Assembly: GCA_045593305.1 (NCBI GenBank)
Contig: JAZNWI010000181.1
Coordinates: forward strand, 8,831-72,830
Length of the DNA: 64,000 nt
Direction of reading: 5' to 3'
Source: Clostridia bacterium
Lineage (GTDB): Bacteria; Bacillota; Clostridia; UBA1381
Shown piece by piece: positions 2,268-20,151 of this stretch (positions are counted from its first letter, which is position 1; the number at the start of each line of letters is the position of its first letter). Both the position numbers and the translations under genes were made by a program. The notes beneath the pieces are model-generated. The model worked only from the letters and a program-made list of their open reading frames with translations, was not told the DNA's origin and searched no databases.

Positions 2268-2285
2268 TAACACAAGGAGTTTGTT

Positions 2286-3609: not shown

Positions 3610-3615
3610 TGTGGA

Positions 3616-3867
3616 ATGAGTAAAATTATAATTACATTAACTAATCAGCGGAGAGATTTCTCCTACGATTTAGAGGTGCCCACAGACGAGCCGATAGAAA
3701 AGCTTTATACAGATATTATTGAAACCTTAAGTAGCCAAAATCCGAGCTTTTTGAGCTATCAGTCTCAGATGCTTTTGTATTCATTACGTATGAAACGATA
3801 CATGCTTCCCAATGAAACTTTAGATTCTTGCGGGGTATTAAACGGCGATTACTTGTTATTAGGTTGA
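3616..3867 (+). CDS. esaB: YukD/EsaB-like ubiquitin-fold T7SS protein
   Basis: 83 aa. Pattern IITLTN..DFSYDLEVPTDEPIEKL...LPNETLDSCGVLNGDYLLL matches the YukD beta-grasp family. T7SS context. Confidence 0.75.
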   Translation: MSKIIITLTNQRRDFSYDLEVPTDEPIEKLYTDIIETLSSQNPSFLSYQSQMLLYSLRMKRYMLPNETLDSCGVLNGDYLLLG

Positions 3868-3875
3868 GGTGCATT

Positions 3876-4178
3876 ATGACAGAGGAAATTTTGTTTGCAG
3901 ATATGCTGAATCACTATTCTTTGAAAATCACCGAATTGTCGGATGTTCTTGCCGACGCGGTTTCAAAGCTTAATACATGCGTGATTCTTTCGGAAGAAGC
4001 TTGGAAAAGTCCGTCCATATTAAAATTTAATGACAAAATTCTTGATATGCGGCAACAGTTCAACAATATGAATCATTCATTGGATGAACTTACAGCTTTA
4101 TTCAATACAATAAAAAATGCGGAATTGGAAGCTCAGACAGAAAACCTTATGAATGTTGTTGAAGCTTCAAAAGACTAG
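3876..4178 (+). CDS. WXG100-like small helical protein (degenerate W-K-S motif)
   Basis: GAGGTG RBS then ATG at 3876. 100 aa. Central EEAWKSPSILKF at the hairpin position. Confidence 0.6.
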   Translation: MTEEILFADMLNHYSLKITELSDVLADAVSKLNTCVILSEEAWKSPSILKFNDKILDMRQQFNNMNHSLDELTALFNTIKNAELEAQTENLMNVVEASKD

Positions 4179-4232
4179 GTGTTAAAGAGAATGTCTCTTA
4201 GCAATATATTTTAGCTTCAGGAGGTGAAAATA

Positions 4233-4535
4233 ATGGCACTTATTCAGGTAACTCCCGATTTACTTAAAGGCAAGGCAAACGAGCTTCGTGGTTTAAAGGG
4301 ACAGCATGACGAGGCAATGAACAAGGTGAGAACTCTCATCACAAACCTTAACGAGGTTTGGAAGGGTGATGCGCAGGTAGCTTTCCTCAACAAATATGAA
4401 AGCATGCAGTCAACTTTCACAAATTTCTCACAGATGCTTGAGGATTATGCAAAGCTTATGGATACAGCAGCTCAGCAGATGGGTGAACTCGATACAGGTC
4501 TTGCAAGCAAGATGTCCGGTTTTGGTACGAAGTAA
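4233..4535 (+). CDS. esxA: WXG100 family T7SS substrate EsxA-like
   Basis: AGGAGGTG RBS then ATG at 4233. 100 aa. MALIQVTPD... N-terminus and central NEVWKGDAQVAF (W-x-G) motif. Confidence 0.85.
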   Translation: MALIQVTPDLLKGKANELRGLKGQHDEAMNKVRTLITNLNEVWKGDAQVAFLNKYESMQSTFTNFSQMLEDYAKLMDTAAQQMGELDTGLASKMSGFGTK

Positions 4536-4548
4536 AACCGAAGAGCCG

Positions 4549-4568
4549 CCTCCGATTTTTATCGGAGG
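4549..4568 (+). terminator. 8-bp hairpin just after esxA (CCTCCGAT-TTTT-ATCGGAGG), weak terminator or mRNA stabiliser
   Basis: Perfect inverted repeat 14 nt after the esxA stop. No clear U-tract follows. Confidence 0.35.
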
Positions 4569-4661
4569 TAGGCTTGCCTGTTTAATTTCGGTAAAGATTC
4601 AAATCCTTTTTTAAGCAAAAAATTCGCCTGTTTAAAAAAAGATTTGAGAAGGAGATAAATT

Positions 4662-4949
4662 ATGGAAATTGTTATAGATGTGGATGCTTTATTGCGTTGT
4701 AGCGATAGTTTGAGCAATGTTAACTATGAGCTGCAGACAAATATGAATAATATTGAGAATCTTGTTCTCGGTTTAGGCAGTGAGTGGCAAGGTCAAACAG
4801 CAAAAGCGTATGAAAATAATATTTTGATTGTGAAGAAACAATTTGAATATCTCAACAAGTATATTGAAGAATACACTCAAGTGCTTAAGACGATAGCTGC
4901 AGAATACGCAGAAACCGAAAAAAATATCACTATGAGATTGGAAGGATAA
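4662..4949 (+). CDS. WXG100 family protein
   Basis: GAAGGAG RBS. 95 aa. Central GSEWQGQTAKAY (W-x-G). Confidence 0.75.
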   Translation: MEIVIDVDALLRCSDSLSNVNYELQTNMNNIENLVLGLGSEWQGQTAKAYENNILIVKKQFEYLNKYIEEYTQVLKTIAAEYAETEKNITMRLEG

Positions 4950-4953
4950 TACA

Positions 4954-5637
4954 ATGTTCAAAAAAATTGAAAACCTTATTCCTCTTGCTGAATCCCACAT
5001 ATATTTTTTAGCTAAAGAATTAAACTTGACTCGTACAGTAGCAACGGGTATCGATTTTACAAGATTATCAAAGCAAGAGCAAAATGAGCTTCGCCAGTCA
5101 GTATATGACCATTTTAGGGAAAATAAAGTTTTAAATACGGACTTTTTCGGCAATGCAACCATACGAAAAGATTATGCGGAAATTGTTCGCATGTTTGAAA
5201 ATCCTGATTATGTTTGTTGTGTTGCCATTGTAGATTACAAGAACAAGAAGTCGGTTATGAAAAAAGTATATTTTTCAAATAATAAATGGTTTGGTCTTGA
5301 TTATAGTTCAAACGGAGCATTTGTCATTGGCGAATTAGATGATGTGAACGATGCTAAAATATTTGCATTGAAAGAAGCAAATATGATTAACGAGACCGAG
5401 CCAATATCAGAGAATGATATTGATAACACATACACTTTTGACAATATAAATGCAGTCGTGTCAAAAATTGTAATCGTCGATGAGTTTTATAAAAGAGGCG
5501 AAGAATATTTTGAAAAACAATGTTTATATACACGGTTGAAAGATGGATTATGGGCAGATCTGGATAGTGCGGATGGAGTGAAGGTACAACTTAAAAAGAA
5601 AGATATGTCGGAAATAGCGTTTTATCAGGAGGGGTAA
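4954..5637 (+). CDS. hypothetical soluble protein in T7SS locus
   Basis: GGAAGGA RBS. 227 aa. Tightly packed, 4 nt after the preceding WXG gene. No family recognised. Confidence 0.55.
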   Translation: MFKKIENLIPLAESHIYFLAKELNLTRTVATGIDFTRLSKQEQNELRQSVYDHFRENKVLNTDFFGNATIRKDYAEIVRMFENPDYVCCVAIVDYKNKKSVMKKVYFSNNKWFGLDYSSNGAFVIGELDDVNDAKIFALKEANMINETEPISENDIDNTYTFDNINAVVSKIVIVDEFYKRGEEYFEKQCLYTRLKDGLWADLDSADGVKVQLKKKDMSEIAFYQEG

Positions 5638-5640
5638 AAA

Positions 5641-5934
5641 ATGGCACAGATCAAAATTGATACAAAATATGCAAGACGCGATGTGAAGCGTATAAGAACC
5701 GCAATAGCTTACCTCGAAAATGCGTATAATGAGTACTCGCAGCTTAATAACTTTGTTAACGATACTTATAAGGGTGAAGCGGCTAACGCCTTGAGCACAT
5801 TGATTACCGCAAATCGTATGAAGAGGGTTCAAAATATGATAAGTGACCTTAGGGGGGCGCAGAACCGACTTCAAAGAGCAATAGACAGCTATGAAAGAGC
5901 CAGCGAAAATGTTAAGAAGAGTGTTGAGGGGTGA
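5641..5934 (+). CDS. small helical WXG100/Lap-like protein (Y-K-G variant)
   Basis: CAGGAGGGG RBS. 97 aa. Central DTYKGEAANAL. Confidence 0.6.
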   Translation: MAQIKIDTKYARRDVKRIRTAIAYLENAYNEYSQLNNFVNDTYKGEAANALSTLITANRMKRVQNMISDLRGAQNRLQRAIDSYERASENVKKSVEG

Positions 5935-5939
5935 GTTTT

Positions 5940-6242
5940 ATGGCCAAAAGAGTTTTAGTAAATGTAGATAAGGTAAACGAACTTGGTAACGAGGTCGAAC
6001 AGCTTTTGCAAGAAATGCAAGCTTGCTATGACAGTATATTAAAAAATAAGCAGTTAATATGTGAAAATTGGCAGAGCGATGCAGCGCTCCAATATGTAAC
6101 CAATATAGATAAACAAAACAAAAATATAAATAAGCTTAAAGATTCCATAAAAAACGATAAGGAATATACATTAAAAACCTCCGCCCAAATTCGAGAGATA
6201 GACAGAAATTTTGCGAAACAATTCGAAAATAATAAGGCTTGA
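5940..6242 (+). CDS. small helical WXG100/Lap-like protein (W-Q-S variant)
   Basis: GAGGGGTGA RBS then ATG at 5940. 100 aa. Central ENWQSDAALQY. Confidence 0.6.
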   Translation: MAKRVLVNVDKVNELGNEVEQLLQEMQACYDSILKNKQLICENWQSDAALQYVTNIDKQNKNINKLKDSIKNDKEYTLKTSAQIREIDRNFAKQFENNKA

Positions 6243-6266
6243 TTAGGGTGAAACGGAGAGATAAAT

Positions 6267-7334
6267 ATGGGAACAATTATTGAATTAAATTATTCAAACA
6301 TACTTAACTATTCTACAAAAATAAGATCTATCGACAACGATTTGGAGCAGGCCTATAAGCAACTTGCGGAATCTACCGATTGGGGTAGTTCAATTATGCA
6401 GGGAACATGGAGCTTTTCTGGGAAAAATGCAATTTTTAATGAATTGGCTCAATCTAAAAAAGAGATAAAGCGTATTATGGAGGCTGATGAGGCGCTTATT
6501 AATATTCTTAACAGCCTTGAGTCAGGTTATGAAGGCGTAAATAAAAAAACAACTACGAATGATGAGGCTATACGAAAATTTATCGAGTCTTTGTTTTGGT
6601 TGGTAAAACCCGCAATCATTGCACCTGTGATCATTGGACCTATATGGGGACAATTAATAAACGGATATTCAGATTGGGATACGGGAATACCGGGTGGGGG
6701 TGTGCCTTCTATACCCAAAATTTTCGAAATAACTGATGATTTGAAAGATAAACTGCTGGAAAAAGCGGATGACATTATTGACGGAACAGGCAAAGACTTA
6801 AAGAGTATGAGTGAATCTCTTGATGCAATAAATGATTGGATAGAAAAGAATCTTGGGGAAGACCGAAGAGATCTTATTGATACCTTGCTGGAAGAGCTGG
6901 TTAACGATAAAGATAAATACAAATCACTAAAAATTCTTCAGCAAATTTTTAGCGGAAATTTCGAAGGAGATACATTAATAGATATAGCTTCTCTTGTTGT
7001 GTCTATTATGGGAAAGTCGAATATTAAAACTAAAACGCTGTTTACCGCACTAAAAAAGATGGACAAGTGGAGCGGAATAGGCGCTGAGATGGAGGCGCAG
7101 GTCATAGAGGCATTTGAAGAGGGCGATATATTTAATGGTGTGAGATTGTTTTTGGGCTATGTGGTCGGCGGTCTTAGTGGTTGCGTGCTGGATAATGCTG
7201 CAGCTTTAGCGGATTCCTATTTGCATATTTCTGAATTGGAAACTATTTTCGAAATATTTACGGGTATTGATATTAACGGACCTGTTGACAAAGCAGTTGG
7301 CTCGTTCTTTTGGCGTCTGTTAGGTTTTAAATAA
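6267..7334 (+). CDS. candidate T7SS effector: WXG/LXG-like helical N-terminus plus hydrophobic, glycine-rich membrane-active regions
   Basis: 355 aa. N-terminal ~100 aa is helical with STDWGSS and GTWSFSGKNA. Hydrophobic stretch FWLVKPAIIAPVIIGPIWGQLI. C-terminal small-residue-rich segment LFLGYVVGGLSGCVLDNAAALA. Confidence 0.55.
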   Translation: MGTIIELNYSNILNYSTKIRSIDNDLEQAYKQLAESTDWGSSIMQGTWSFSGKNAIFNELAQSKKEIKRIMEADEALINILNSLESGYEGVNKKTTTNDEAIRKFIESLFWLVKPAIIAPVIIGPIWGQLINGYSDWDTGIPGGGVPSIPKIFEITDDLKDKLLEKADDIIDGTGKDLKSMSESLDAINDWIEKNLGEDRRDLIDTLLEELVNDKDKYKSLKILQQIFSGNFEGDTLIDIASLVVSIMGKSNIKTKTLFTALKKMDKWSGIGAEMEAQVIEAFEEGDIFNGVRLFLGYVVGGLSGCVLDNAAALADSYLHISELETIFEIFTGIDINGPVDKAVGSFFWRLLGFK

Positions 7335-7349
7335 TCGGAGGATAAATAA

Positions 7350-7685
7350 ATGCAATTATTACATATAGGCACAATTTTTACTAAAAATGAAAAGAACTTC
7401 TTGATAATTGGTTATTCCGTCATAAAAAAAGATGAAAAACTACTTCCTGCGTATAAATGCGTTCGGCTTCCGTTGGGCTTCATCAGCAAAGATAGTATAA
7501 AAACCGTTTCTATTGATGATGTTGATAATGTTATTTTCAGCGGCTATAAAAACGAGCAAGCAAACGATTATTTGGAAAAGCTCGGAAAAATATATGATGT
7601 TTTCGGAGAATACGGAGAAGAAGTAAACGATCAGTTAGATGAAGTGTTACAGGCTTTAAAGGAAGGTGGGTATATAAATGAGTAA
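7350..7685 (+). CDS. DUF4176-like protein
   Basis: 111 aa. LLHIGTIF...FLIIGY...RLPLGF...VDNVIFSGYKNE matches the DUF4176 pattern (LPLGSVV ... MI.G ... YP.G ... V.F.GY). Confidence 0.65.
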   Translation: MQLLHIGTIFTKNEKNFLIIGYSVIKKDEKLLPAYKCVRLPLGFISKDSIKTVSIDDVDNVIFSGYKNEQANDYLEKLGKIYDVFGEYGEEVNDQLDEVLQALKEGGYINE

Positions 7686-7944
7686 TTTATTACCGTTAGG
7701 CTCAATAGTAAAAAAGCAGGATAGATTGTTTATGCTCGTCGGCTATCTTCCTCAAGATAAAAAAATCCACATGTATTCCGCTGTTCCGTACCCTTTGGGT
7801 ATGCTGGAAAAGGAAGTAATATATACAATTGACGAAAATGAGTTCGAGGTCGAATTCAAGGGGTACAGCGATGATTTAACTGAACAAGCGCTGAATGGTA
7901 TTGAACTTTTAATACGGGAATTGGCTGCTCGGTTGACTAAATGA
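7678..7944 (+). CDS. DUF4176-like protein
   Basis: 88 aa. LLPLGSIVKK..LFMLVGY...AVPYPLGML...EVEFKGYSDD is a close match to the DUF4176 pattern. Overlaps the previous gene by 8 nt. Confidence 0.75.
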   Translation: MSNLLPLGSIVKKQDRLFMLVGYLPQDKKIHMYSAVPYPLGMLEKEVIYTIDENEFEVEFKGYSDDLTEQALNGIELLIRELAARLTK

Positions 7945-7987
7945 TTGATTTGTCTGTAAATTAATTTAATTGATAGGATGTATGACA

Positions 7988-8788
7988 ATGGCAAACAGTA
8001 TTAAAGTAGAAACAGATACGCTGACGAAGTTAGCGGTGCAGTACAGAAGCGATGCAGAAAATTATAAGAACTGTTGCGACAAGCTTGAGGCTAAGCTGGC
8101 GGAATACGATGATTATTGGTGGGGCGCTTTTTCAGCGAGTTTTGAGACTGAGATAAAGAACCTGAAAAAACAGAAGAAAACTGTTTACGATAATTGTATG
8201 AGCTTGGCTCAGTTTTTGGATGAAGCGGTAAAACTCTATATACAGCTTGATAGGGGCTTAATAGCTAAAGATAGCGTGGATGTCAATGATTATCCGGAAG
8301 GTGTAAGGGTTAGCCAACACATTCCTACCGATGCGGAATTACAGGAGTTATATAACAATAGTGTTTATCCCGGAATGGGAAAAAATCCGGATGGTTCCGT
8401 TAGTTGCGCTGCACTTACAAAAAGAAAGGCGCAACAGCACGGTTTTGACTATACAGGCTACGGTAACGGTAATCAAGTTTATGACAGGATTCAGTCAAAT
8501 AATAGTTTCAACGTTACTAAATATCCCGGTAGGGACTGTTTAAATAAGTTGATTGCCGCAGAGGGGGAGCCTGTAACCAATGTGGTTATCTCGTTCCCAC
8601 GCTCTCCTAAATGGGGCAATAAGTATGGTCATGTGCTTTATATCGATAAGATAGTAGATGGTAAAGTTTATTATTCAGATAATACAAGTCCGAGTACAGC
8701 CAAAGTAAAAACAATTGATGATTTCTTAAATGCTTATTATAAATCAAACGGAAGTCCGATAGGTTGCGCGCATTTAGAGAAAAAATAG
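7988..8788 (+). CDS. WXG-like N-terminal domain fused to a CHAP/NlpC-P60-type peptidoglycan amidase
   Basis: N-terminus has DDYWWGAFSASF (W-x-G). C-terminus has candidate catalytic Cys (GSVSCAALTK) and His (YGHVLYIDKIVDGKVYYSDNT). No signal peptide. Start is at 7988, or at 7982. Confidence 0.7.
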   Translation: MANSIKVETDTLTKLAVQYRSDAENYKNCCDKLEAKLAEYDDYWWGAFSASFETEIKNLKKQKKTVYDNCMSLAQFLDEAVKLYIQLDRGLIAKDSVDVNDYPEGVRVSQHIPTDAELQELYNNSVYPGMGKNPDGSVSCAALTKRKAQQHGFDYTGYGNGNQVYDRIQSNNSFNVTKYPGRDCLNKLIAAEGEPVTNVVISFPRSPKWGNKYGHVLYIDKIVDGKVYYSDNTSPSTAKVKTIDDFLNAYYKSNGSPIGCAHLEKK

Positions 8789-8801
8789 AGAAGAAAAAAT
8801 A

Positions 8802-10805
8802 ATGAATATTCAGGTGATTGGGATGTTAGATAAAGGTACGCCGGTATTCGGTAATTGGAGCGTTGATGAAAAGATCGGCTCCGGGGCTTTCGGTACCGTG
8901 TATAAAATAAAAAGAGAAGAATTCGGCAGAACATATTTTGCCGCTATGAAGGTTATTAAAATACCGCAGGATAAGTCGGAATATAAAAGACTTCGCAGCG
9001 AAGGTATGGACGATGAAAGCATATCTACATATTACGGACAGATTGCCGAAGATTTCATAAAAGAAATCGAGATGCTTTCTTCTCTTGACGGTATTACGAA
9101 CATAGTTGATTACAAGGACCATATTATAGAATCTTGTGCTGATTTAGGTTACACGATTTATATTAAAATGCAGTTGTTGACACCTTTATCAAATCAGCTT
9201 GTTAAAGAAAACGGGCAGGTTAATTTCCTGCCCTATGATGAAATACTGAATTTAGGTATCGACATTTGCTCGGCGCTTGAAACCTGCGAAAAGCATAATA
9301 TTATCCACCGCGATATTAAGGTGGATAACATTTTCGTTTCTTCAAACGGCGATTACAAATTGGGCGATTTCGGTATAGCAAAGCAGCTTGAAGCAACCCA
9401 AGGGGAGATGTCTAAAAAGGGCACATTGCTGTATATGGCTCCCGAGGTTTTCCGAGCCGAAAACTACGATAAAACTGCGGATATTTATTCGTTAGGCATT
9501 GTTCTGTATCGTCTGCTTAATAAAAACAGAGCGCCCTTTTTCCCCGAATATCCCACACCCATAAAATTTACCGATAAGGAACAAGCTAATACAAAGCGTT
9601 TAAACGGCGAAGATTTCCCCGATATCAGCGATATAAGCGGCGAGCTTATGAATGTTTTGAAAAAAGCCTGCGCATTTAACCCGAAAGACAGATATCAGAG
9701 CGCAAGCGAATTCAAAAAAGCACTTAAAGCCGTAAAAAAAGCCAAGGCTGAAACCGAAGAAGAGGAAATTACCGCTATTCCCGTGGCGCCTGCTCCGATT
9801 GTTGAAACTCCCGTTGAGGATGATTCTTTAGAAGCAACAGCAAGCGCGTTCAATGACGAAATACCACAGGTGGATTATATCCCTCAAAACGAGGTTGACG
9901 AAACGGTTGAAGAGGATGACTTAGAAGCAACAGCAAGCGCGTTCAACGATGAAATACCGCAGGTCGATTATATCCCGCAAAACGAGGTTGACGAAGTTGT
10001 TGAGGATGATGATTTAGAGGCAACGGCAAGCGCATTTAATGACGAAATACCGCAGGCTGAATATATCCCTCAAAACGAGGTTGACGAAGCTGTTACGGAG
10101 GACGATTTAGAAGCAACTCAGAGTGAGTTTGATAATCAAACACCTGAAGAAATCGCTTCCGAAGATGATGCCGTAGAGAAAAAACGTAATGGTAATCGTA
10201 TTAGTGCATGGGGATTACTTACAGTAATAGTAGTGTGTTTTGTTATTGGTACTTTAACCATGAACCAAACATCGGGTTATCAGCCTGAAGAAACAAAAAC
10301 CTCGATACAGCTGGCTGAAATAGATGGGAAAGATTGTGGAGAGGTTGAAAGCCTGCTCTATAATGCCGGGATTGACTACTATTATACAGATGTTTATTCC
10401 TCAACCTACGAATACGGCACTATTATTGGTGAAGGTCGTGACGGTTGGAGAGATAGTTCGTATGCTTACACCGGAGATACTGTAGAGCTGCTTTTCAGTT
10501 GCGGACCGGCTGACGCTGCTTGGGCATACGGTGAGCCTGATAATTACGACGGTGTAGTAACAGAAGATGGTTTGTTTTATGTGGAACTTATGGCAGAAGA
10601 TGGGTCTTTTTATAGAGATGACGCAAACCTTTATACTTGGGAGCGTTTGATGGAGGTTTATGGTTCCAATATGGTTCCGGAGCGCCAGCCAAGAGATATA
10701 ATTGATGACCCTATGATGGGGGATGTGACATTAAACGGTAAGGAGGTTTATATTGGGTACAATGTCGGCCCATACTGGCGCTATGACTACGAAATCTGGG
10801 ATTAA
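8802..10805 (+). CDS. Hanks-type Ser/Thr protein kinase, membrane-anchored, with acidic repeat linker and extracytoplasmic domain
   Basis: Kinase motifs GSGAFGTVY, AMKVIK, HRDIKVDNIF, DFGIA, MAPE. TM segment WGLLTVIVVCFVIGTL. One PASTA-like segment in the C-terminal domain. An alternative start ATG 8823 would match the paralog's N-terminus. Confidence 0.9.
   Translation: MNIQVIGMLDKGTPVFGNWSVDEKIGSGAFGTVYKIKREEFGRTYFAAMKVIKIPQDKSEYKRLRSEGMDDESISTYYGQIAEDFIKEIEMLSSLDGITNIVDYKDHIIESCADLGYTIYIKMQLLTPLSNQLVKENGQVNFLPYDEILNLGIDICSALETCEKHNIIHRDIKVDNIFVSSNGDYKLGDFGIAKQLEATQGEMSKKGTLLYMAPEVFRAENYDKTADIYSLGIVLYRLLNKNRAPFFPEYPTPIKFTDKEQANTKRLNGEDFPDISDISGELMNVLKKACAFNPKDRYQSASEFKKALKAVKKAKAETEEEEITAIPVAPAPIVETPVEDDSLEATASAFNDEIPQVDYIPQNEVDETVEEDDLEATASAFNDEIPQVDYIPQNEVDEVVEDDDLEATASAFNDEIPQAEYIPQNEVDEAVTEDDLEATQSEFDNQTPEEIASEDDAVEKKRNGNRISAWGLLTVIVVCFVIGTLTMNQTSGYQPEETKTSIQLAEIDGKDCGEVESLLYNAGIDYYYTDVYSSTYEYGTIIGEGRDGWRDSSYAYTGDTVELLFSCGPADAAWAYGEPDNYDGVVTEDGLFYVELMAEDGSFYRDDANLYTWERLMEVYGSNMVPERQPRDIIDDPMMGDVTLNGKEVYIGYNVGPYWRYDYEIWD
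9816..10151 (+). repeat. In-frame 93-bp tandem repeat, 3 full units plus 1 partial, encoding DDLEATASAFNDEIPQVDYIPQNEVDExVEE
   Basis: The LEAT codons recur at 9828, 9921, 10014 and 10107, an exact 93-nt period. Confidence 0.9.
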
Positions 10806-10826
10806 TAATTATAAAAGGGTGAAATT

Positions 10827-12551
10827 ATGTTAGATATAGGCACAAAGGTCTTTGGTGATTGGACCGTTGATGAAAAAATCGGTTCCGGTGCATTCGGAAC
10901 GGTTTACAGAATAAAAAAAGAGGATTTCGGCAATTTTTACTACGCCGCGATGAAGGTTATTCGTATCCCCCAGGATAAAGCTGACCACGACAAGCTTCGT
11001 ACCGAAGGTATGGATGACGAGAGCATTTCTTTGTATTACGGACAAATTGCTCAGGATTTCATTAAGGAAATTAAATTGCTTTCCTCTCTCGACGGAATAA
11101 CGAATATTGTTGATTACAAGGACCACAGCATCGTCCTTAATGAGGATTTCGGGTACACGATTTACATAAAAATGCAGTTGCTGACTCCTTTAAGCAAAAA
11201 GCTTATTGATGAAAATAAGCAGGTGTTATTTATGTCCGTTGACGAGGTGTTGGATTTAGGTATGGATATCTGTACCGCCCTTGAAACCTGCGAAAAGCAT
11301 AATATTATTCACCGCGATATTAAGGTGGATAACATTTTCGTTTCCTCTAACGGCGATTATAAACTTGGCGATTTCGGAATAGCAAGACAGCTTGAAGCTA
11401 CCCAGGGCGAAATGTCTAAAAAGGGTACGCTTATGTATATGGCGCCGGAAGTGTTCAGGGGAGAGAACTACAACAAAACAGCAGATATTTATTCTTTGGG
11501 TATAGTGTTGTATCGTTTGCTTAATAAAAACAGAGCCCCGTTTTTTCCCGAGTATCCTACTCCAATAAAATTTACAGATAAAGAGGATGCCAACGCTAAA
11601 CGCCTGAAAGGCGAGGCGTTCCCGGATATAAGCGGCGTAAGCGCGGAGCTTGTGGCTGTTTTAAGAAAAGCCTGCGCATTCAACCCTGAGGAAAGATATC
11701 AGACCGCAGGAGATTTCAAGAGAGCCTTGAAATCCATAAAAAAAGGTGCTGCACAATCCGTTCAGCCGCAGGCAGAAGAAAAAGCTTCTGAGCCTCAGGT
11801 TGTTGAAGACGAATATGAAGCAACAGGTAGCGCTTTTAATATGGAGATACCCGAGGTTGAAACAAAAGAAGCACCTGCTATTGAGGAATGTTTTGCAGAA
11901 GATACCGACTTAGAAGCAACAGGCAGCGCTTTTAATATGGAGATCCCTGCCTTTGAAACGAAAGCAGCACCTATTGTTGAGCCTTCTTTTGCGGAAGATA
12001 CCGATTTAGAAGCAACAGGCAGTGCTTTTAATATGGAGATCCCTGCCTTTGAAACGAAAGCAGCACCTATTGTTGAGCCTTCTTTTGCGGAAGATACGGC
12101 TTTGGATGAAACTGTTGGTGTGTTTAACAATATTCCGTTTTATGCTGAACAATCAGAAGAAGCCGAACAAAAAACCAAAAAGCAAAAAGCCGGAAAAAAA
12201 CAAAAGAAGCAAAAAGCCAAAAAAGCCGGGAAAGCCGATAAATTACAAGAGCCGATGGCGGAAATAGGCGGCGTATTAAACGAAGCGAAGGAAAAGGGCA
12301 TAACAAAAAAACTGAGCCAAAAAACAAAGGTTTTGATGATAATAAATATAATTCTTGCTGTTGTATCAGCGGTCGTAGCTTTGATATTTGGGGCTTATTA
12401 TATTTTGGCTATAATTGGCATTGCAATATCTGCCGGCAATTTAATCAGCTTACTTGTGATTCTGTTCAAATATAAAATAATACCTTTAATAAAGCGCTTA
12501 TTTAATATCATTAATTCACTTTTTGGAGCTATAAAGGGTATAAAGAAATAA
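10827..12551 (+). CDS. Hanks-type Ser/Thr protein kinase paralog with repeat linker, Lys-rich tract and C-terminal double TM
   Basis: Same kinase motifs as the upstream gene. Long runs of near-identical nucleotide sequence across the catalytic core. C-terminal hydrophobic stretch VLMIINIILAVVSAVVALIFGAYYILAIIGIAISAGNLISLLVILF. No ectodomain. Confidence 0.9.
   Translation: MLDIGTKVFGDWTVDEKIGSGAFGTVYRIKKEDFGNFYYAAMKVIRIPQDKADHDKLRTEGMDDESISLYYGQIAQDFIKEIKLLSSLDGITNIVDYKDHSIVLNEDFGYTIYIKMQLLTPLSKKLIDENKQVLFMSVDEVLDLGMDICTALETCEKHNIIHRDIKVDNIFVSSNGDYKLGDFGIARQLEATQGEMSKKGTLMYMAPEVFRGENYNKTADIYSLGIVLYRLLNKNRAPFFPEYPTPIKFTDKEDANAKRLKGEAFPDISGVSAELVAVLRKACAFNPEERYQTAGDFKRALKSIKKGAAQSVQPQAEEKASEPQVVEDEYEATGSAFNMEIPEVETKEAPAIEECFAEDTDLEATGSAFNMEIPAFETKAAPIVEPSFAEDTDLEATGSAFNMEIPAFETKAAPIVEPSFAEDTALDETVGVFNNIPFYAEQSEEAEQKTKKQKAGKKQKKQKAKKAGKADKLQEPMAEIGGVLNEAKEKGITKKLSQKTKVLMIINIILAVVSAVVALIFGAYYILAIIGIAISAGNLISLLVILFKYKIIPLIKRLFNIINSLFGAIKGIKK
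11814..12140 (+). repeat. In-frame 96-bp tandem repeat, 3 units plus 1 degenerate, encoding LEATGSAFNMEIPAFETKAAPIVEPSFAEDTD
   Basis: Unit starts at 11814, 11910, 12006 and 12102. Units 2 and 3 are almost identical at DNA level. Confidence 0.9.
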
Positions 12552-12575
12552 AAGTTTAATAAAAGGAAAATTATT

Positions 12576-13592
12576 ATGGCGAATCTTCTTATTTCAGGCT
12601 ACGCTCGCAGTAACGTAGGTAAAAAACGAAGCAACAACGAGGATAATTTTTATCTCTCGGGTGTTACTGTTGATTCTGCTAACGATATTTCAGCGGAGTA
12701 CGAGTATTCATCAAAAATAGCCACCGCTGTTTTCGACGGTATGGGTGGCGAGGCCGCCGGAGAAAAGGCATCTCAGACGGCGGCGGTTACATTCGGCGAA
12801 AAAATCGTGGAGGTTATTAGTTCCGATTTTTCCGAAAATGTAATCGGCTCGGTAATAGAAAGTGCTAACAGCGCCGTTTGTGCCGAAATGCGCAAAATCG
12901 GAAAGCGTATGGGTTGTACATTCGTATCGCTTGGCTTTTCCGACGGAAAAATATATATTTCAAATGTCGGGGACAGCCGCGCCTATCTTTTGAGAGATGG
13001 TAAACTGATTTGCCTCAGCAAGGACCATACGATTGCTCAGACTATGGTTGATGCAGGTATGGTTTCCTACGAAGAGTCTCAAAAAATAAAAGAGAAGCAC
13101 AAATTAACTCAGCATATCGGCATTTTCCCCGAAGAAATGATTATCGAGCCCTATTTCAAGACCATAGCCGCCAAAGAGAATGATGTGATTTTACTTTGTA
13201 GCGATGGGCTTACGGATATGTTGACTGATGATGAAATTAAGGATGTTTTGTTGGGGAATGCTACGGTTAAGCAAAAGGCTGACGCACTAGTGGAAGCGGC
13301 TCTTGGAAAAGGCGGTAAGGATAATGTTACGGTTGTTGTAGCTTCTGTTTCCGCCAAAAACACAGTAGCGGCAATCACCAAAGAAAAGCGCAGACCGAAA
13401 AAATGCAACAAAAAGAAGCTGGCTGTAACAGGTGCGATTTTTGGTGCAGTTGCGATTATTATCACTTTGATTTTACTGCTTTTGAGTAGTGGCGTTTTTG
13501 ATTCAAAGGATAAGGATAACGGCGGTAAAAGCACACAAACAATATTTAGTGATATCTTTACAAGTGAAAAGAAAGAAGCCCCGAAGGTTTAG
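12576..13592 (+). CDS. PP2C (PPM) family Ser/Thr phosphatase with C-terminal TM anchor
   Basis: Motifs AVFDGMGGEAAGE, NVGDSRAYLL, LLCSDGLTDML, GGKDNVTVVV. TM segment VTGAIFGAVAIIITLILLLL. Confidence 0.9.
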   Translation: MANLLISGYARSNVGKKRSNNEDNFYLSGVTVDSANDISAEYEYSSKIATAVFDGMGGEAAGEKASQTAAVTFGEKIVEVISSDFSENVIGSVIESANSAVCAEMRKIGKRMGCTFVSLGFSDGKIYISNVGDSRAYLLRDGKLICLSKDHTIAQTMVDAGMVSYEESQKIKEKHKLTQHIGIFPEEMIIEPYFKTIAAKENDVILLCSDGLTDMLTDDEIKDVLLGNATVKQKADALVEAALGKGGKDNVTVVVASVSAKNTVAAITKEKRRPKKCNKKKLAVTGAIFGAVAIIITLILLLLSSGVFDSKDKDNGGKSTQTIFSDIFTSEKKEAPKV

Positions 13593-13618
13593 GGTATAGC
13601 ATTACTGAAACTAAAAAA

Positions 13619-13668
13619 GCCTCGTCAGGATTGCGGCGTTTTCCGCTTTCCCGACGGGGCAATTTTTA
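13619..13668 (+). terminator. Rho-independent terminator after the kinase/phosphatase genes
   Basis: GCCTCGTCAGG...CCCGACGGGGC stem with an inner GCGG/CCGC stem, followed by AATTTTTA. Confidence 0.6.
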
Positions 13669-13787
13669 TGCTCTCGTATGGTAAAACCGATACTGTAAAA
13701 ACAGTGGTTTATTTATAATGAAATAAATGGTGCATTTTAATATGATGTATGTTATGATAAATAAAAAGGTCGGAGGCGTGAGCTTTT

Positions 13788-15263
13788 ATGACAACCAAGG
13801 AATATTTAAATCTGATTGATACTGTAAATGAAAACGGTAAATATAAAGCGGATTGGTCATCTCTTTCCCACCATAAGGTGCCCGAGTGGTATATGCGGGA
13901 TAAATTAGGTGTGTTTATTCATTGGGGTGTTTACAGCGTTCCTGCCTTTGGAAGCGAATGGTATTCCCGCGAAATGTATTGGGAGGGAACAAACGAGTTC
14001 AAGCACCATGTTGAAAACTATGGTAAGCAGGATGAGTTCGGGTATAAAGATTTTATTCCTATGTTCAAGGCTGAGAGGTTTGATGCTTCGGCTTGGATAT
14101 CGCTTTTTAAGAAATCCGGTATCAGATATGTTATGCCTGTTGCGGAGCATCACGATGGCTTCGCAATGTACGATACAGAGTTCAACCGATGGAATTCCAA
14201 AGAAATGGGCCCCTGCCGCGATGTTGTAGGCGAATTGAAAGCAGAGTGCGAAAAACAAGGGTTGGAGCTTTGCGCATCAACTCACCGTGCGGAGCATTAT
14301 TTCTTTATGAATGGCGGCAGAGAATATGACAGCGATGTAAATGATGAAAACTACAGAGATTTTTACGGTCCTGCTGTTTACTGCGAAGAATTTCATTCGG
14401 GCAGGCTTCACAAATATACTGCCGATACATATTCAAAAGGTGCAAGTACGCAGTGGCTTGAGGATTGGCTTGTGAGAACCTGTGAGATAATTGATAAATA
14501 TCAACCTTCAGTATTATATTTTGATTGGTGGATTCATAATCATTCCTTTAAGCCGTACCTTAAAAAGCTTGCGGCATACTACTACAACCGCGCTGAAGAA
14601 TGGGGTAAGGAGGTTACCATCAATTACAAGCACGAGGCTTTTCCGCCTACGGTTGCAACCTTCGATGTTGAGCGCGGTGCATTGTCGGGTATTTCCCCCA
14701 TTTATTGGCAGACCGATACGGCTATCGGAAAACACTCGTGGGGTTACAGGAAGGACAACAAATATAAAAGCGCCCGTCAGGTTATTTGCGACCTCGTTGA
14801 CATTGTAAGTAAAAACGGAAATCTTCTTATAAATATAGGTCCCAAGCCTGACGGAACAATAACCGATGAAGAGACTAAGGTTTTACTTGATATGGGGCGA
14901 TGGCTCGAAATAAACGGCGAAGGTATTTACGGAACAACCTTCTGGAAAACTTTTGGGGAAGGCGAGGTTAACGCAGAAGACGGTTTCTTTAAGGATAATG
15001 AAGAAAAGGCTTTTACAAATGAAGACTTCAGATTTACTTTTAAAAATGGTTATCTGTATGCTTTCCAGATGCGCCCGTCAAATACAGTCAGAATCAAAAC
15101 TCTTCGAAAACACAATCCGCACGATTATCTTATAGAGAGTATCGAACTTCTTGGTACTGATGAAAAAATTGAATTTGACAGAAATGAAGAGTATCTTGAA
15201 ATCAACCTGAAAGGCGAATTTGCAAAGAATTTGCCAATTTGCTTCAAAATAGAATTAGGCTAA
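13788..15263 (+). CDS. alpha-L-fucosidase (GH29)
   Basis: GVFIHWGVYSVPAFGSEWYSREMY signature. 491 aa. No signal peptide. Confidence 0.9.
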   Translation: MTTKEYLNLIDTVNENGKYKADWSSLSHHKVPEWYMRDKLGVFIHWGVYSVPAFGSEWYSREMYWEGTNEFKHHVENYGKQDEFGYKDFIPMFKAERFDASAWISLFKKSGIRYVMPVAEHHDGFAMYDTEFNRWNSKEMGPCRDVVGELKAECEKQGLELCASTHRAEHYFFMNGGREYDSDVNDENYRDFYGPAVYCEEFHSGRLHKYTADTYSKGASTQWLEDWLVRTCEIIDKYQPSVLYFDWWIHNHSFKPYLKKLAAYYYNRAEEWGKEVTINYKHEAFPPTVATFDVERGALSGISPIYWQTDTAIGKHSWGYRKDNKYKSARQVICDLVDIVSKNGNLLINIGPKPDGTITDEETKVLLDMGRWLEINGEGIYGTTFWKTFGEGEVNAEDGFFKDNEEKAFTNEDFRFTFKNGYLYAFQMRPSNTVRIKTLRKHNPHDYLIESIELLGTDEKIEFDRNEEYLEINLKGEFAKNLPICFKIELG

Positions 15264-15266
15264 AAA

Positions 15267-15311
15267 ACACACCCAACTGTTATGCTTTTCATAACGGTTG
15301 GGTGTGTTGTT
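15267..15311 (+). terminator. Rho-independent terminator
   Basis: 18-bp stem ACACACCCAACTGTTATG / CATAACGGTTGGGTGTGT with one G-T pair, followed by a T-rich tail. Confidence 0.75.
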
Positions 15312-15530
15312 ATCTATCTGTTTAATTGATTTTTATAAGAATAAAGGTTAAAGGTAAGGGATTTGTTTTAACGCTCATATTCAGTTGTGAATGAAAAGCT
15401 CAACGCAGAAAACAGAAACGCCATAATCATCCGGTTGTTATTATAGCTGAAGTATCCCTGCTCGTATATTCAAGTCAAAACAAATTTTCTCATAAAACAT
15501 AAGAAAATTTAGCTATAATAAGACACTTTA

Positions 15531-15570
15531 GTGCAACTTAGTGCCTCTAAAATGCAACTTGCGCTTGACC
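15531..15570 (+). promoter_or_regulatory. Direct repeats (TGCAACTT x2, 21-bp period) abutting a TTGACC -35-like hexamer; candidate LytTR operator
   Basis: GTGCAACTT at 15531-15539 and ATGCAACTT at 15552-15560. TTGACC at 15565-15570. Lies upstream of the ABC/LytTR operon. Confidence 0.45.
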
Positions 15571-15625
15571 GTATTGTAAATTGAAAATGTATTTGTTAAA
15601 GTGATGTTACAGGGAGGCGATAGAT

Positions 15626-16516
15626 ATGAAGTCTATTGAAATAAATAACCTTACTAAAAAATACGGCGATTTTACTGCAGTGGATAATATTTCTTTTTTC
15701 GCTTGCGACGGTGAGTTTGTTGGTTTTTTAGGCGTTAACGGAGCAGGCAAATCTACCACGATAAATATAATGTCAACCTTGCTTGCGCCTACTGACGGTG
15801 ATGTTAAAATCTGCGGATACGATTTATCGCAAGATACCAAGATAAGAGAAAATATAGGTGTTGTATATCAGGAAAATGTTCTTGATGATTTGTTGACAGT
15901 TAATGAAAATTTACTATGCCGAGGAGTGCTTCACGGAATTACAAAAAAACAGGCACAGGAAAAAGCACTGGAATTAAGCGAGATTTTTGGGATTGGAAAA
16001 ATACTTGATAAAAAATATAAATACCTGTCCGGTGGACAAAAAAGACGATGCGAAATAGTGGCGGCTCTTATGCATACACCGAAAATACTTTTTCTTGATG
16101 AACCGACAACAGGACTTGACCCGGCAGCTCGTATTGAAGTCTGGAATACAGTAAAGTTGATGCGTGAGAAAACGAATATGACGGTTTTTCTTACGACACA
16201 TTATATGGAAGAAGCTGCACAGGCGGATAAAATAATTATAATAGATAAGGGTAAATTAATTGCAGAAGGAAGTCCTTTTGAGCTTAAAGAAAAATATGCA
16301 TATGATTACTTGCGGATTTACACAGATGAAAACATTGAGTGTAAATTAAAAAACTTTGAATATAGAAAACAGGGTAACGAAGTGATGATAAAATTGAAAA
16401 AAACAAATGATGCTATTGAAATTATAAATGAATTAAAAGGTAGCTTCAGTGGTTTTGAAGTCGTTCAAGGAACCCTTGACGACGTGTTTATAAATGCGAC
16501 GGGAGGATTATTATGA
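15626..16516 (+). CDS. ABC transporter ATP-binding protein
   Basis: Walker A GVNGAGKST, signature LSGGQKRR, Walker B LFLDEPTTGLD. Confidence 0.9.
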   Translation: MKSIEINNLTKKYGDFTAVDNISFFACDGEFVGFLGVNGAGKSTTINIMSTLLAPTDGDVKICGYDLSQDTKIRENIGVVYQENVLDDLLTVNENLLCRGVLHGITKKQAQEKALELSEIFGIGKILDKKYKYLSGGQKRRCEIVAALMHTPKILFLDEPTTGLDPAARIEVWNTVKLMREKTNMTVFLTTHYMEEAAQADKIIIIDKGKLIAEGSPFELKEKYAYDYLRIYTDENIECKLKNFEYRKQGNEVMIKLKKTNDAIEIINELKGSFSGFEVVQGTLDDVFINATGGLL

Positions 16517-17427
16517 CACAATATACACAATTGGTTAAAAGAAATTTATTGATGTATCTTAGGGATAAGGGAACAGTTTTCTTTTCGCTGTTGTCAATGC
16601 TTGTAGTGTTGTGCCTTATGATATTTTTCCTCGGTGATATTAACATTGATATGTTAACGGATAATCTTGCCGCATTACCGAACAGAAACGCCGCAGAAGA
16701 TAAAACTAACGCTTTTTTATTGGTTTTAGCGTGGACAATCGGCGGTATAGTTCCCAGTAATGCGGTTATGGTTACGCTTTCATCTTATTCGGCTATGATA
16801 AAAGATAAGAACAGTAAACGCAGCGATGCTATTTATACATCACCGGTAAACAGGGGGATTATAGCATTATCATACATAACTTCAACTTGTTTATCTGCCA
16901 TTATAATATGTTCACTCACATTTACGATTGCCGAAATATATTTTGTGATAAAGGGAGCATCTGCTTTATCGCTATTTTCACATATTAAAGTTTTTCTGTT
17001 TATAATAGTTAGTTCTTTTTCGTATTCTGCTATAATGTATTTATTCGCTACACTAGTAAAGAGCGAAAGTGCCTGGAGTGGCTTCGGGACCGTAATAGGA
17101 GCTTTAGTCGGTTTCTTCGGCGGCACATATATGCCCATAGGTCAACTTTCACCTTTACTTCAAAATGTAGTAAAATGTACTCCTGTTATTTACAGTACGG
17201 TTATGTTCAGAAATGTAATATGTGAAGACATGATGGGTGTGTTGTTCGTGGATGTGCCTGAAGAAATTGCAAATATTTATGGTGAAACTATGGGGATAAG
17301 TATAAATTTATTTGATTGGAATATTTCACCATTGATTTGTTGTGTGTTTTTACTTGTTTCGGGTTTTGTATGCTTAGGCTTAGGAATGCTTGTTATTAAT
17401 TACAGAAGAAAGAATGGTGCGAAATGA
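16513..17427 (+). CDS. ABC-2 type transporter permease
   Basis: Start overlaps the ATPase stop. About 6 TM segments. 304 aa. Confidence 0.75.
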   Translation: MTQYTQLVKRNLLMYLRDKGTVFFSLLSMLVVLCLMIFFLGDINIDMLTDNLAALPNRNAAEDKTNAFLLVLAWTIGGIVPSNAVMVTLSSYSAMIKDKNSKRSDAIYTSPVNRGIIALSYITSTCLSAIIICSLTFTIAEIYFVIKGASALSLFSHIKVFLFIIVSSFSYSAIMYLFATLVKSESAWSGFGTVIGALVGFFGGTYMPIGQLSPLLQNVVKCTPVIYSTVMFRNVICEDMMGVLFVDVPEEIANIYGETMGISINLFDWNISPLICCVFLLVSGFVCLGLGMLVINYRRKNGAK

Positions 17428-17861
17428 AAATAACAATTGTAACACCTAAACCGAATGAAGAGGATGAAATCATAATAAAATGCAGAAATCTCGATGAAGA
17501 TTTAATGAAAATCATCTGTCGGTTAAAGGAAGAGGAAAGCAGAGTTACTGCTTATCAGGATAGAGATATAATTAAGTTGTATCCTAAAGATATTTATTAT
17601 TTTGAGTCCGTTGACAATAAGGTGTTTGCTTGTTGCGAAAAACAGGTTTATGAAGTGCGGCTGAAACTTTATGAAATTGAAGATGCTTTGTCAAACAGCG
17701 ATTTTATCAGAATATCAAAATCTGTTATTGTGAATTTATATAAAATAAAATCTGTTGCACCGATGTTTAACGGAAGATTTGAAGCAAAACTTCAGAATGA
17801 CGAAAAAATTATTATTTCAAGGCAGTATGTACCTGATTTGAAAAAAGCGTTAGGTATATAG
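17424..17861 (+). CDS. LytTR-domain DNA-binding protein (no receiver domain)
   Basis: IYYFESVDNKVFACCEKQVYEVRLKLYEIEDAL..FIRISKSVIVNLYKI is typical of the LytTR domain. 145 aa. Confidence 0.85.
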   Translation: MKITIVTPKPNEEDEIIIKCRNLDEDLMKIICRLKEEESRVTAYQDRDIIKLYPKDIYYFESVDNKVFACCEKQVYEVRLKLYEIEDALSNSDFIRISKSVIVNLYKIKSVAPMFNGRFEAKLQNDEKIIISRQYVPDLKKALGI

Positions 17862-17873
17862 GAGGTTAATGCA

Positions 17874-18296
17874 ATGAAATTTTTTACTGAATTCCTTAAA
17901 ATGTTTACATATATTACAACGGGGACAGCTATTGCTTTTGCTATATATACATTGATAGTAGGATATGAAATGGTGGCTGTTTATAGCGTAGCAGAAATTC
18001 CTTTGGTAGGGATAATTATGTCCCTTGTTACAACCGCAACTATTCAGCGTGAATATTCAACAAATAAGGGTATGGTTTTCGCCTTTGCTTGTCATTATAT
18101 TTTTGTAAGTGCTTCAATGGTAGGTTTAGGCATTCTTTTTGAATGGGTAAGACCCGTACCGAAAGAAATTGTATTAATGCTTATTTGTGTGGTTTTTGTT
18201 TATGCATTTTCAATTGCAATGTTTTTCATTTCAATGAAAAGGGAAGCCAATCAAATAAATGCTGCATTAAAAGAACGGTTGGAAAAACAGGATTAA
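17874..18296 (+). CDS. DUF3021-like 4-TM membrane protein (putative LytTR partner/inhibitor)
   Basis: AGGAGG RBS. 140 aa with four hydrophobic helices. LytTR plus small membrane protein is the conserved gene order. Confidence 0.65.
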   Translation: MKFFTEFLKMFTYITTGTAIAFAIYTLIVGYEMVAVYSVAEIPLVGIIMSLVTTATIQREYSTNKGMVFAFACHYIFVSASMVGLGILFEWVRPVPKEIVLMLICVVFVYAFSIAMFFISMKREANQINAALKERLEKQD

Positions 18297-18370
18297 ATTA
18301 TAAAAAACCGGGTTCTTGCTTAATTTCTTGGTATTTTGCAAATGTTTTGGAAAAAATATGTTTTTTTACC

Positions 18371-18409
18371 TAACAAATCAAGTTTTAAACAGACTATATA
18401 GTTGAAAGC
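18371..18409 (+). promoter_or_regulatory. Promoter-like module TAACAA-N16-ACTATATA-N2-TGAAAGC upstream of sigma gene 1
   Basis: The same module, with the same spacing, recurs upstream of the paralogous sigma gene at 20113-20151. Confidence 0.4.
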
Positions 18410-18434
18410 ATTACGTAATCGCTTGGAGGACCAT

Positions 18435-20060: not shown

Positions 20061-20112
20061 TACATAGTTTCGAAATTTATTGAAAACGATAAAAATTTTT
20101 AAAAAAATTAGT

Positions 20113-20151
20113 TAACCGGGATAAGACATTTTGTACTATATATATGAAAGC
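20113..20151 (+). promoter_or_regulatory. Promoter-like module TAACCG-N16-ACTATATA-N2-TGAAAGC upstream of sigma gene 2
   Basis: Same architecture as 18371-18409. Confidence 0.4.

Follow-up and report, generated by a model that had tools for sequence, protein, structure and literature searches.

To our knowledge, how type VII secretion system (T7SS) machines of Gram-positive bacteria are switched on is largely unknown, and their kinase-bearing variants are known only through genome analysis. The described systems closest to the locus reported here come from Garrett, Higginson and Palmer (2024, Microlife, PMC11217815), who defined the types T7SSc to T7SSj, with membrane kinases (TsxD) in types c, d, e and j and PPM phosphatases (TsxF) in types c, e, f and j. 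According to their Table S1, the phosphothreonine (pThr)-binding motifs of FHA domains are kept only in the ATPases of types d, e and j (90-100% versus 0/0/21% in T7SSb). The same authors drew a parallel with the type VI secretion system (T6SS), suggesting that threonine phosphorylation exerts the control, and noted that the kinase (TscD) has an EssB-like topology. Furthermore, a kinase/phosphatase/FHA pathway has been shown experimentally to control Esx in Schaalia (2026 preprint, PMC13622651). Here we analyzed a 64-kb stretch of DNA from a Clostridia bacterium (contig JAZNWI010000181.1, positions 8,831 to 72,830), hereafter the window, which carries the 3' part of a T7SS cluster ending with two Hanks-type Ser/Thr kinases (K1 and K2) and a PP2C phosphatase. 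We consider it probable (roughly 60%) that these three enzymes are the phospho-signalling block of a compact kinase-type T7SS and act through the second FHA domain (FHA2) of its ATPase, EssC. An accessory, T7SS-dedicated kinase/phosphatase module, possibly working via the FHA domains of EssC, had already been suggested in the initial annotation of this DNA, and this core inference is corroborated by the synteny and FHA2 co-occurrence described below, but it is already published by Garrett et al., whose Table S1 shows the same correlation. The gain is thus incremental, the general idea being in print; what is new is that the architecture is compact, that the association was replicated independently in gut lineages rich in metagenome-assembled genomes, and that a repeated candidate docking motif and a PASTA-like sensor are present.

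The window begins inside essC, so that the 5' end of this gene, encoding the FHA region, falls outside it. From position 1 to 13592 all open reading frames (ORFs) lie on the + strand, overlapping or separated by short gaps. The features of the cluster are given below in nucleotides (nt) of the window; amino acid (aa) positions in K1 are counted throughout from the ATG at 8802.

1-2267, + strand: 3' part of essC/tsxC, FtsK/SpoIIIE ATPase (FtsK_SpoIIIE, E 1e-31)
2286-3609, + strand: two conserved proteins without assigned function, 199 aa (2286-2885) and 243 aa (2878-3609)
3616-3867, + strand: YukD/EsaB-type ubiquitin-like protein, TsxB (PF08817, E 5e-9)
4224-4535, + strand: EsxA-type WXG100 protein, TsxA (PF06013, E 9e-13)
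4537-4647, + strand: two strong stem-loops in the 126-nt gap directly after esxA (dG -43 kcal/mol, z -5.5)
4662-4949, + strand: second WXG100 protein, A2-like (PF06013, E 2e-10)
4954-7944, + strand: putative cargo/accessory block (a protein of 227 aa, a pair of small helical WXG-like proteins, a protein of 355 aa that contains a hydrophobic segment, and a pair of DUF4176 proteins)
7970-8788, + strand: putative effector with a WXG100-like N-terminus (E 6e-9) and a CHAP-like C-terminus (E 2e-4, under the Pfam cutoff)
8802-10805, + strand, likely start at ATG 8823: K1, Hanks Ser/Thr kinase (Pkinase, E 6e-44)
9813-10117, + strand: tandem repeat in the K1 linker, 93 nt x 3.3 (Tandem Repeats Finder)
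10302-10499, + strand: one PASTA-like domain, with which the K1 ectodomain starts (sub-threshold Pfam match, AlphaFold 2 model, Foldseek)
10827-12551, + strand: K2, paralogous Hanks kinase (Pkinase, E 9e-41)
11817-12097, + strand: tandem repeat in the K2 linker, 96 nt x 2.9 (Tandem Repeats Finder)
12576-13592, + strand: PPM/PP2C phosphatase (PP2C, E 3e-16)
13619-13668, + strand: intrinsic-terminator-like hairpin closing the cluster (dG -30 kcal/mol, z -4.5, U-rich tail)

Comparison with described secretion systems

The cluster shares with T7SSb an EssC-type FtsK/SpoIIIE ATPase, EsxA (WXG100) and EsaB/YukD, together with LXG/WXG-type cargo accompanied by DUF4176 accessory genes and a kinase-fold membrane protein of EssB-like topology. 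The locus had at first been called a T7SSb locus, an assignment we reject, since EssA, EssB and EsaA are absent and the FHA2 motifs are intact in the clade. No ORF from essC to the PP2C gene gave a match to the YukC family (EssB), and neither the ORFs of the cluster nor those upstream of essC in three related loci (L019, L012 and L029) matched EsaA/YueB or EssA/YueC; likewise, the cluster encodes no polytopic or large membrane protein, and the rest of the 64 kb holds no further T7SS-like gene. The two remaining differences concern the proteins that are present: FHA2 of the clade keeps its pThr-binding residues, whereas T7SSb EssC shows 0% GR and 0% SxxH (Table S1 of PMC11217815), and the kinase fold is catalytically intact here, whereas EssB is a pseudokinase. 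Alternatively, the kinases might be chiefly structural membrane subunits that replace EssB, their kinase fold and transmembrane (TM) segment scaffolding EssC, with phosphotransfer secondary or dispensable. K1 does have the layout of EssB (cytoplasmic kinase fold, one TM segment, ectodomain), as Garrett et al. noted for TscD, and EssC is the only evident candidate for a membrane component in the cluster besides the kinases. However, both kinases keep all catalytic residues, an active-looking PP2C is kept beside them, and the number of kinases and their C-terminal domains vary widely in relatives, which suits interchangeable sensors better than structural subunits; we therefore regard a mainly structural role as unlikely.

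The locus also resembles types d, e and j. In common with them, it has an EssC-type ATPase with FHA motifs GR/SxxH/NG (read in relatives, not in the window), a WXG100 pair, a YukD-like protein, a PPM phosphatase and a membrane Ser/Thr kinase whose active site is intact. EssA, EssB and EsaA are missing in both, and the same logic of regulation by threonine phosphorylation is proposed for it. The T7SSe components A1, A2, B, C, D and F are all present here. Several features set the locus apart from all three types: (i) it has two tandem kinases (three in relatives) with different C-terminal sensor parts instead of one, (ii) no TsxI, no TsxJ and no H- or K-like small single-TM ORFs were seen in the cluster or, in relatives, within 10 kb, and (iii) the linker repeat motif and the PASTA-like ectodomain described below are absent from the text of PMC11217815. 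From T7SSe it further differs in that its PP2C is TM-anchored, whereas TseF is described as cytoplasmic. T7SSd, in turn, was reported from Actinomycetota only, without a ubiquitin-like protein and without a phosphatase (PMC11217815), whereas the nearest relatives of the window are Clostridia and its cluster encodes YukD as well as PP2C. The variant is found in Bacillota and in Coriobacteriia, and the Coriobacteriia members of the clade (L029, L030) also have YukD (E 4e-8) and PP2C.

The missing components were searched for individually. For TsxI (Sec signal, Ig-like domains, C-terminal TM segment, about 1500 aa), no ORF of 800 aa or more is present in positions 1-20000 of the window, and within 10 kb of essC, 27 of the 28 clade loci have no ORF of this kind, if EssC, kinases and antisense ORFs overlapping essC are set aside. 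The same screen detected a 1495-aa Ig-like protein in L079, which served as a positive control; this locus represents an independent lineage (EssC 29% identical) with intact FHA motifs, YukD, and a kinase and the Ig-like protein after essC. The exception among the clade loci is a 1431-aa ORF just upstream of essC in L032 (2718-7010), which might be TsxI-like and could link the compact form to T7SSe. TsxJ (DUF6382 plus FHA) is stated for all T7SSe loci (PMC11217815); no ORF of the cluster gave a DUF6382 or FHA match at E <= 1. Finally, a crude hydropathy screen found no small ORF with a hydrophobic segment that would resemble TseH or TseK, for which no family model exists. On this sequence evidence, we provisionally file the locus as a compact, unnamed relative of T7SSd/e, with a minimal gene set of EssC, YukD, EsxA, kinases and PP2C that dispenses with the Ig-like and DUF6382-FHA components.

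A more distant parallel is offered by the PpkA/PppA/Fha1 pathway of the T6SS in Pseudomonas and Agrobacterium, in which a secretion cluster likewise encodes an FHA reader and a PP2C that antagonises a membrane Hanks kinase, the kinase having a periplasmic or extracellular sensor, and PppA is a detectable sequence relative of the window's PP2C (E 1e-18). The secretion machine is a different one, the T6SS FHA domain is a separate protein whereas here it is fused to the motor ATPase, and in the present case the kinases would carry the proposed phospho-acceptor themselves, in their linkers.

Linkage of the kinase and phosphatase genes to EssC

A scan of species representatives (one genome per species) with the C-terminal half of EssC returned 80 loci. 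Related loci and contigs used for comparison carry L-numbers, and P0002 denotes the K1 orthologue of L001. The essC fragment of the window is 82-83% identical to the full-length EssC of L005 and L019 (1515-1516 aa), both of which have an FHA domain with GR/SxxH/NG intact. The order essC(FHA) ... yukD, esxA ... cargo, two to three kinases and PP2C recurs in L001, L005, L002 and L019, and orthologues of the 199-aa and 243-aa proteins stand at the equivalent position in L001, L005 and L019. The downstream flanks differ, with thioredoxin/acetyltransferase genes in L001, ApbA/hydrolase genes in L002, and a fucosidase gene in the window. For L001 and L005, EssC is 82% identical, the K1 orthologue just 52% over its full length. 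Housekeeping genes lie upstream of essC in L019, L012 and L029; the cluster therefore begins with essC and ends with the kinase/PP2C block.

This arrangement extends well beyond the closest relatives. Nearly all loci with EssC at least 38% identical to that of the window have a kinase and a PP2C on the same strand, 4-10 kb downstream, and the carriers include Acutalibacteraceae, Ruminococcus, Faecousia, Roseburia, Acetatifactor and other Lachnospiraceae, as well as the Coriobacteriia Olsenella sp. kh2p3 and Tractidigestivibacter scatoligenes; at about 50 more distant EssC loci, a kinase or PP2C is almost never present. A search for homologues with the EssC fragment itself gave mostly partial EssC-type ATPases on short contigs, at most 52% identical, and also FHA-less Paenibacillus-type EssC, about 35% identical. 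Gut Clostridia and some Coriobacteriia thus keep the kinase/PP2C block together with this T7SS type, and its linkage to the T7SS is strong. The survey of orthologous loci agrees with the dedicated module that had been suspected, since relatives retain the block although they differ in the genes downstream of it. Several loci have a PP2C gene directly upstream of essC (L011:5936-6637, L013:6832-8022, L015:7157-7918 and L022:7270-8031), replacing the kinase-side PP2C or adding to it.

The state of the FHA domains follows the same division. All 26 full-length EssC proteins of the clade have a degenerate FHA1-like module (aa 1-95), followed by an FHA2 (aa ~100-190) that keeps GR, SxxH and mostly NG. 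The co-occurrence of intact FHA2 motifs with a downstream kinase or PP2C was counted in the 59 loci, themselves phylogenetically clustered, that had at least 6 kb of sequence downstream of essC:

FHA2 GR + SxxH intact: kinase or PP2C downstream, 19; none downstream, 1
FHA2 GR + SxxH not intact: kinase or PP2C downstream, 1; none downstream, 38

These counts also bear on the notion that the enzymes are a generic envelope kinase/phosphatase pair (PrkC/Stp-like), or a free-standing multi-kinase array, that merely adjoins a T7SS. The PASTA-like ectodomain of K1 would fit such a pair, and the kinase family is a large one (7793 matches among 8000 candidates scored) in which arrays without a T7SS occur. 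Mere adjacency is nonetheless quite improbable, because the position at the end of the T7SS cluster is kept across families and two phyla with differing flanking genes, the presence of the block co-varies with the FHA motifs, and most of the nearest K1 relatives examined adjoin an FHA-bearing FtsK/EssC-type ATPase. Compared with the PASTA kinases and their phosphatases (PknB/PstP, PrkC/PrpC, StkP/PhpP, IreK/IreP), the locus has in common a Hanks kinase with a TM segment, an extracellular PASTA-like fold and juxtamembrane threonines as (here candidate) phospho-sites, and PstP is likewise a C-terminally membrane-anchored PPM phosphatase. The differences are that K1 has one divergent PASTA-like unit plus a further domain in place of 3-5 PASTA repeats, that its kinase domain is distant and its linker is built on tandem DNA repeats, and that the genes close a T7SS cluster instead of belonging to the conserved housekeeping operon beside cell-division or translation genes.

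Related genomes hold a cluster of a second kind, seen at L086 (13313-22739), L087 (1079-13156) and L085. It encodes a 1556-aa FHA-bearing FtsK-type ATPase and five small ORFs (71-120 aa) without a Pfam match to WXG100 or YukD, followed by kinases of the K1 family and a PP2C; L085 adds two further PP2Cs and a stand-alone FHA protein. This may be another kinase-linked EssC-like system.

The kinases, the phosphatase and a candidate phospho-motif

The initial annotation had placed two Hanks kinases 13 nt after the last effector gene, which was borne out, with a refinement of the start of K1. The K1 ORF begins 13 nt past the stop of the gene encoding the WXG100-N/CHAP-like protein; however, the true start is probably the ATG at 8823, 34 nt past that stop, which would make K1 a protein of 660 aa. 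This start is likelier because an AGGTGA Shine-Dalgarno sequence lies 5 nt upstream of it and because it aligns with Met1 of K2 and of P0002. The gaps that follow are similarly short, 21 nt between K1 and K2 and 24 nt between K2 and the PP2C gene. Both kinases keep the Gly-rich loop, the catalytic Lys, the C-helix Glu, HRDxKxxN, DFG and APE, and their kinase domain is only distantly related to solved structures (best PDB E about 1e-20). The PP2C retains the metal-binding motifs ED, DGMGG, GDSR, DG and DN, and its nearest solved structure is M. tuberculosis PstP (E 7e-32). Hydropathy indicates one C-terminal TM segment (aa 284-302) with a 36-aa tail, so the membrane anchor first ascribed to this phosphatase holds, though it is limited to the near subclade. 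Judged from their sequences, all three enzymes look catalytically competent and membrane-anchored, with catalytic domains predicted to be cytoplasmic.

In K1 the catalytic domain is followed by an acidic linker with repeats, a single TM segment indicated by hydropathy (aa 467-485) and an ectodomain of 182 aa. In K2 it is followed by a repeat linker, a tract rich in Lys and, by hydropathy, a C-terminal pair of hydrophobic segments (aa 502-520 and ~534-555), without an ectodomain, as had been described. The PASTA-like character claimed for the K1 ectodomain also found support. PASTA is its sole Pfam match, below threshold (E 7e-4, 19.9 bits against a cutoff of 23.2), and the best Foldseek matches of the AlphaFold 2 model are the PASTA domains found in PrkC (S. 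aureus) and PknB (M. tuberculosis), with a root-mean-square deviation of 2.0 A over 65 columns and a good fit over 65-70 residues. The PASTA-like part was modelled with a per-residue confidence (pLDDT) of 70-86, the mean over the whole model being 60; the underlying alignment held four sequences only, and the model is weak beyond the PASTA-like part. The remaining ~100 aa of the ectodomain (10500-10802) are beta-rich in this low-confidence model, end in an invariant W..WRYDYEIWD, and matched neither a family nor a fold. Searching for homologues with the ectodomain alone returned zero matches; the ectodomain is retained in P0002, P0010 and P0017. Relatives also have a third type of kinase with a polytopic C-terminal domain of about 5 TM segments (L001:13611-15353, L019:21486-, L004:1794-3467), which forms its own branch of the kinase tree and of which the window has no copy.

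The catalytic domains of K1 and K2 had been called nearly identical even in DNA and attributed to recent tandem duplication or gene conversion, which did not hold up. They are identical at 77.0% of nucleotides, 79.7% of amino acids and 55.6% of third codon positions, and K1 and K2 are nearer to their own L001 orthologues (85% and 88%) than to each other (81%). The K1 orthologues are P0002/L001 and that of L005, the K2 orthologue is L001_12033 (88% identical), and the distinct C-terminal architectures of the two kinases are retained in the respective orthologues. Because third-position identity is low and each kinase has a separate orthologue in a relative, we conclude from the sequences that the duplication is old and predates the split of species with EssC 82% identical. 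What speaks for a recent event is a ~60-nt patch at the catalytic loop (HRD-DFG), with 19 of 20 third positions identical (uncorrected p 1e-4) and a 35-nt identical run; set against the divergence of the remainder, a recent duplication or homogenising gene conversion is very hard to credit, and across the whole genes it is contradicted.

The two kinases had furthermore been described as differing completely after the catalytic domain. This was not confirmed, since the linkers of both carry four copies of a common motif, DLEAT(A/G)SAFNxEIP. In K1 these are four copies of DDLEAT(A/Q)S(A/E)F, the degenerate fourth lying just past the end of the tandem repeat (about nt 10116-10118), with T346, T377, T408 and T439 as candidate phospho-acceptors. 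The K2 linker has (D/E)(L/Y)EATGSAF at T333, T365 and T397 and a degenerate LDETVGVF at T429, with the copies at T333 and T429 flanking the array, just before and just after it. Downstream of their catalytic domains, the locus kinases contain 43 instances of the core T-x-[SGA]-x-F with acidic residues ahead of it, where shuffled sequences would give 7.2; it is present in 20 of 44 locus kinases with 2-4 copies per juxtamembrane linker, typical forms being EKTESVF, EKTGSAF, DKTLSPF, DQTIGAF and DNTVGIF. Among the T7SS proteins of the window, the acidic form is confined to the K1 and K2 linkers. Isolated, non-acidic matches to the bare core pattern lie in EssC, in the TM segment of PP2C and in the K2 catalytic domain, and the cargo and WXG100 proteins of the window do not match even the bare core. 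The suggestion that the module marks substrates was accordingly dropped as far as this motif is concerned, the motif being absent from WXG100, LXG-like and other locus proteins.

The acidic-T-x-(S/G)-x-F motif of the linkers resembles the ETTSVF site of GarA/OdhI that is bound by FHA domains. In both cases an acidic residue precedes T-x-S-V/A-F (here E-A-T-A-S-A-F, in relatives E-K-T-E-S-V-F) and the motif lies in a disordered acidic segment that is a substrate, here a candidate one, of Hanks kinases. GarA, however, has one copy that is read in cis by its own FHA domain, whereas here 2-4 copies sit on a kinase and the proposed reader, EssC, would act in trans; the resemblance is one of sequence only. 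The ETTSVF phospho-motif itself appears in PMC5448819 and PMC8546545.

These observations can be assembled into a working scheme for action through FHA2. K1 would sense a cell-wall-derived signal via its PASTA-like ectodomain, and K1 and K2 would phosphorylate the linker threonines, their own or each other's. The resulting multivalent pThr array would recruit FHA2 of the EssC ATPase and so promote assembly or activation of the machine, the kinases standing where T7SSb has its EssB pseudokinase, and the membrane PP2C would strip the phosphates and turn secretion off. The eight threonines in the repeated linker motifs make the candidate docking site concrete. A more specific version, which we put forward tentatively, is possible: the active kinases may be the counterparts of EssB as core membrane partners of EssC, with the pThr residues of their tandemly repeated linker units as a multivalent platform for at least 12 FHA2 domains of an EssC hexamer, so that assembly would be gated by phosphorylation, with a PASTA-sensed signal and a PP2C reset. 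If this were true, the contact between the EssB pseudokinase and FHA in T7SSb would be a fossil of such a switch. As the clade is common in gut Clostridia and its cargo is of an antibacterial type, the switch may govern interbacterial antagonism in the gut.

A number of points weigh against action of the enzymes through FHA2. The Fisher p of 3e-13 for the table above overstates independence, since the 59 loci are phylogenetically clustered, and for the window's own EssC the FHA domain is deduced from proteins that share 82-83% identity with it. Among the more distant half of the clade the linker motif is lost in its strict form, and only a looser acidic-T-(I/V/M)-G is left, for example in L026, L028 and L029. 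Kinase and PP2C arrays also exist without a T7SS, and in one of these, four kinases and a PP2C in L004, the motif is present as well; it thus belongs to the kinase family and is not specific to the T7SS. In addition, FHA2 could bind a phosphoprotein other than the kinases, and the conservation of the post-esxA hairpin pair means that the cluster may not be one simple transcription unit.

Some of these points would suit an indirect or transcriptional control, in which the kinases and PP2C act on expression or on another phosphoprotein and FHA2 reads a different pThr target. There are precedents in the IreK-dependent induction of T7SS in Enterococcus and in the Esr pathway of Schaalia (PMC13622651), the lack of T7SS specificity of the linker motif is in keeping with it, and the post-esxA hairpins show that expression of the locus is structured. 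However, the cluster encodes no transcription factor and no separate FHA protein, what the enzymes co-vary with so tightly are pThr-binding residues in an FHA domain of the ATPase itself, and no other protein of the locus has the motif, which leaves indirect control doubtful in our estimation; of the two, action through EssC FHA2 is the reading we prefer.

Junctions, hairpins and neighbouring genes

At the sequence level, nothing was found between the cargo genes and the kinases that separates them transcriptionally. A terminator scan gave no terminator-like site on the + strand at the kinase and PP2C junctions, which agrees with the initial annotation, and a consensus promoter scan showed no enrichment (41 sites versus 42.8 expected). 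The terminator scan, with its T-run rule, overlooked both the hairpin at 13619-13668, which is followed by AAUUUUUAU, and those after esxA; both were therefore folded directly. The claim that the first strong terminator appears only after the PP2C gene consequently stands for the kinase block and fails for the cluster, given the strong stem-loops at 4537-4647. Post-esxA hairpins of differing sequence are found in relatives as well (L019:14760-14850, L001:5460-5550, L002:5154-5245 and L012:13747-13813; z -5.5 to -9.4), in a gap of ~100-126 nt that holds two stem-loops in the window, L019, L001 and L002 and one in L012. They may be an attenuator, a terminator or a processing site and might set the ratio of esxA to downstream transcript.

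The 199-aa and 243-aa proteins have no TM segment and no Pfam family match, and a small helical protein is encoded between the yukD-like gene and esxA. The gene at 7970-8788 is the last T7SS cargo gene ahead of the kinases, and its L001 orthologue is 75% identical. No candidate immunity gene lies between this CHAP-like effector gene and K1; L001 has an extra 245-aa ORF there.

Downstream of the cluster follows an unrelated gene that is not conserved in relatives:

13788-15263, downstream of the cluster: alpha-L-fucosidase

Farther along the window, two adjacent long proteins (552 and 522 aa; 18402-21743) with N-terminal sigma-70 r2/r4 regions look like sigma/anti-sigma fusions. A 678-aa ATPase with AAA and AAA_lid_6 domains (55825-57861) resembles the ATPase encoded 3 kb downstream of the L001 PP2C gene.

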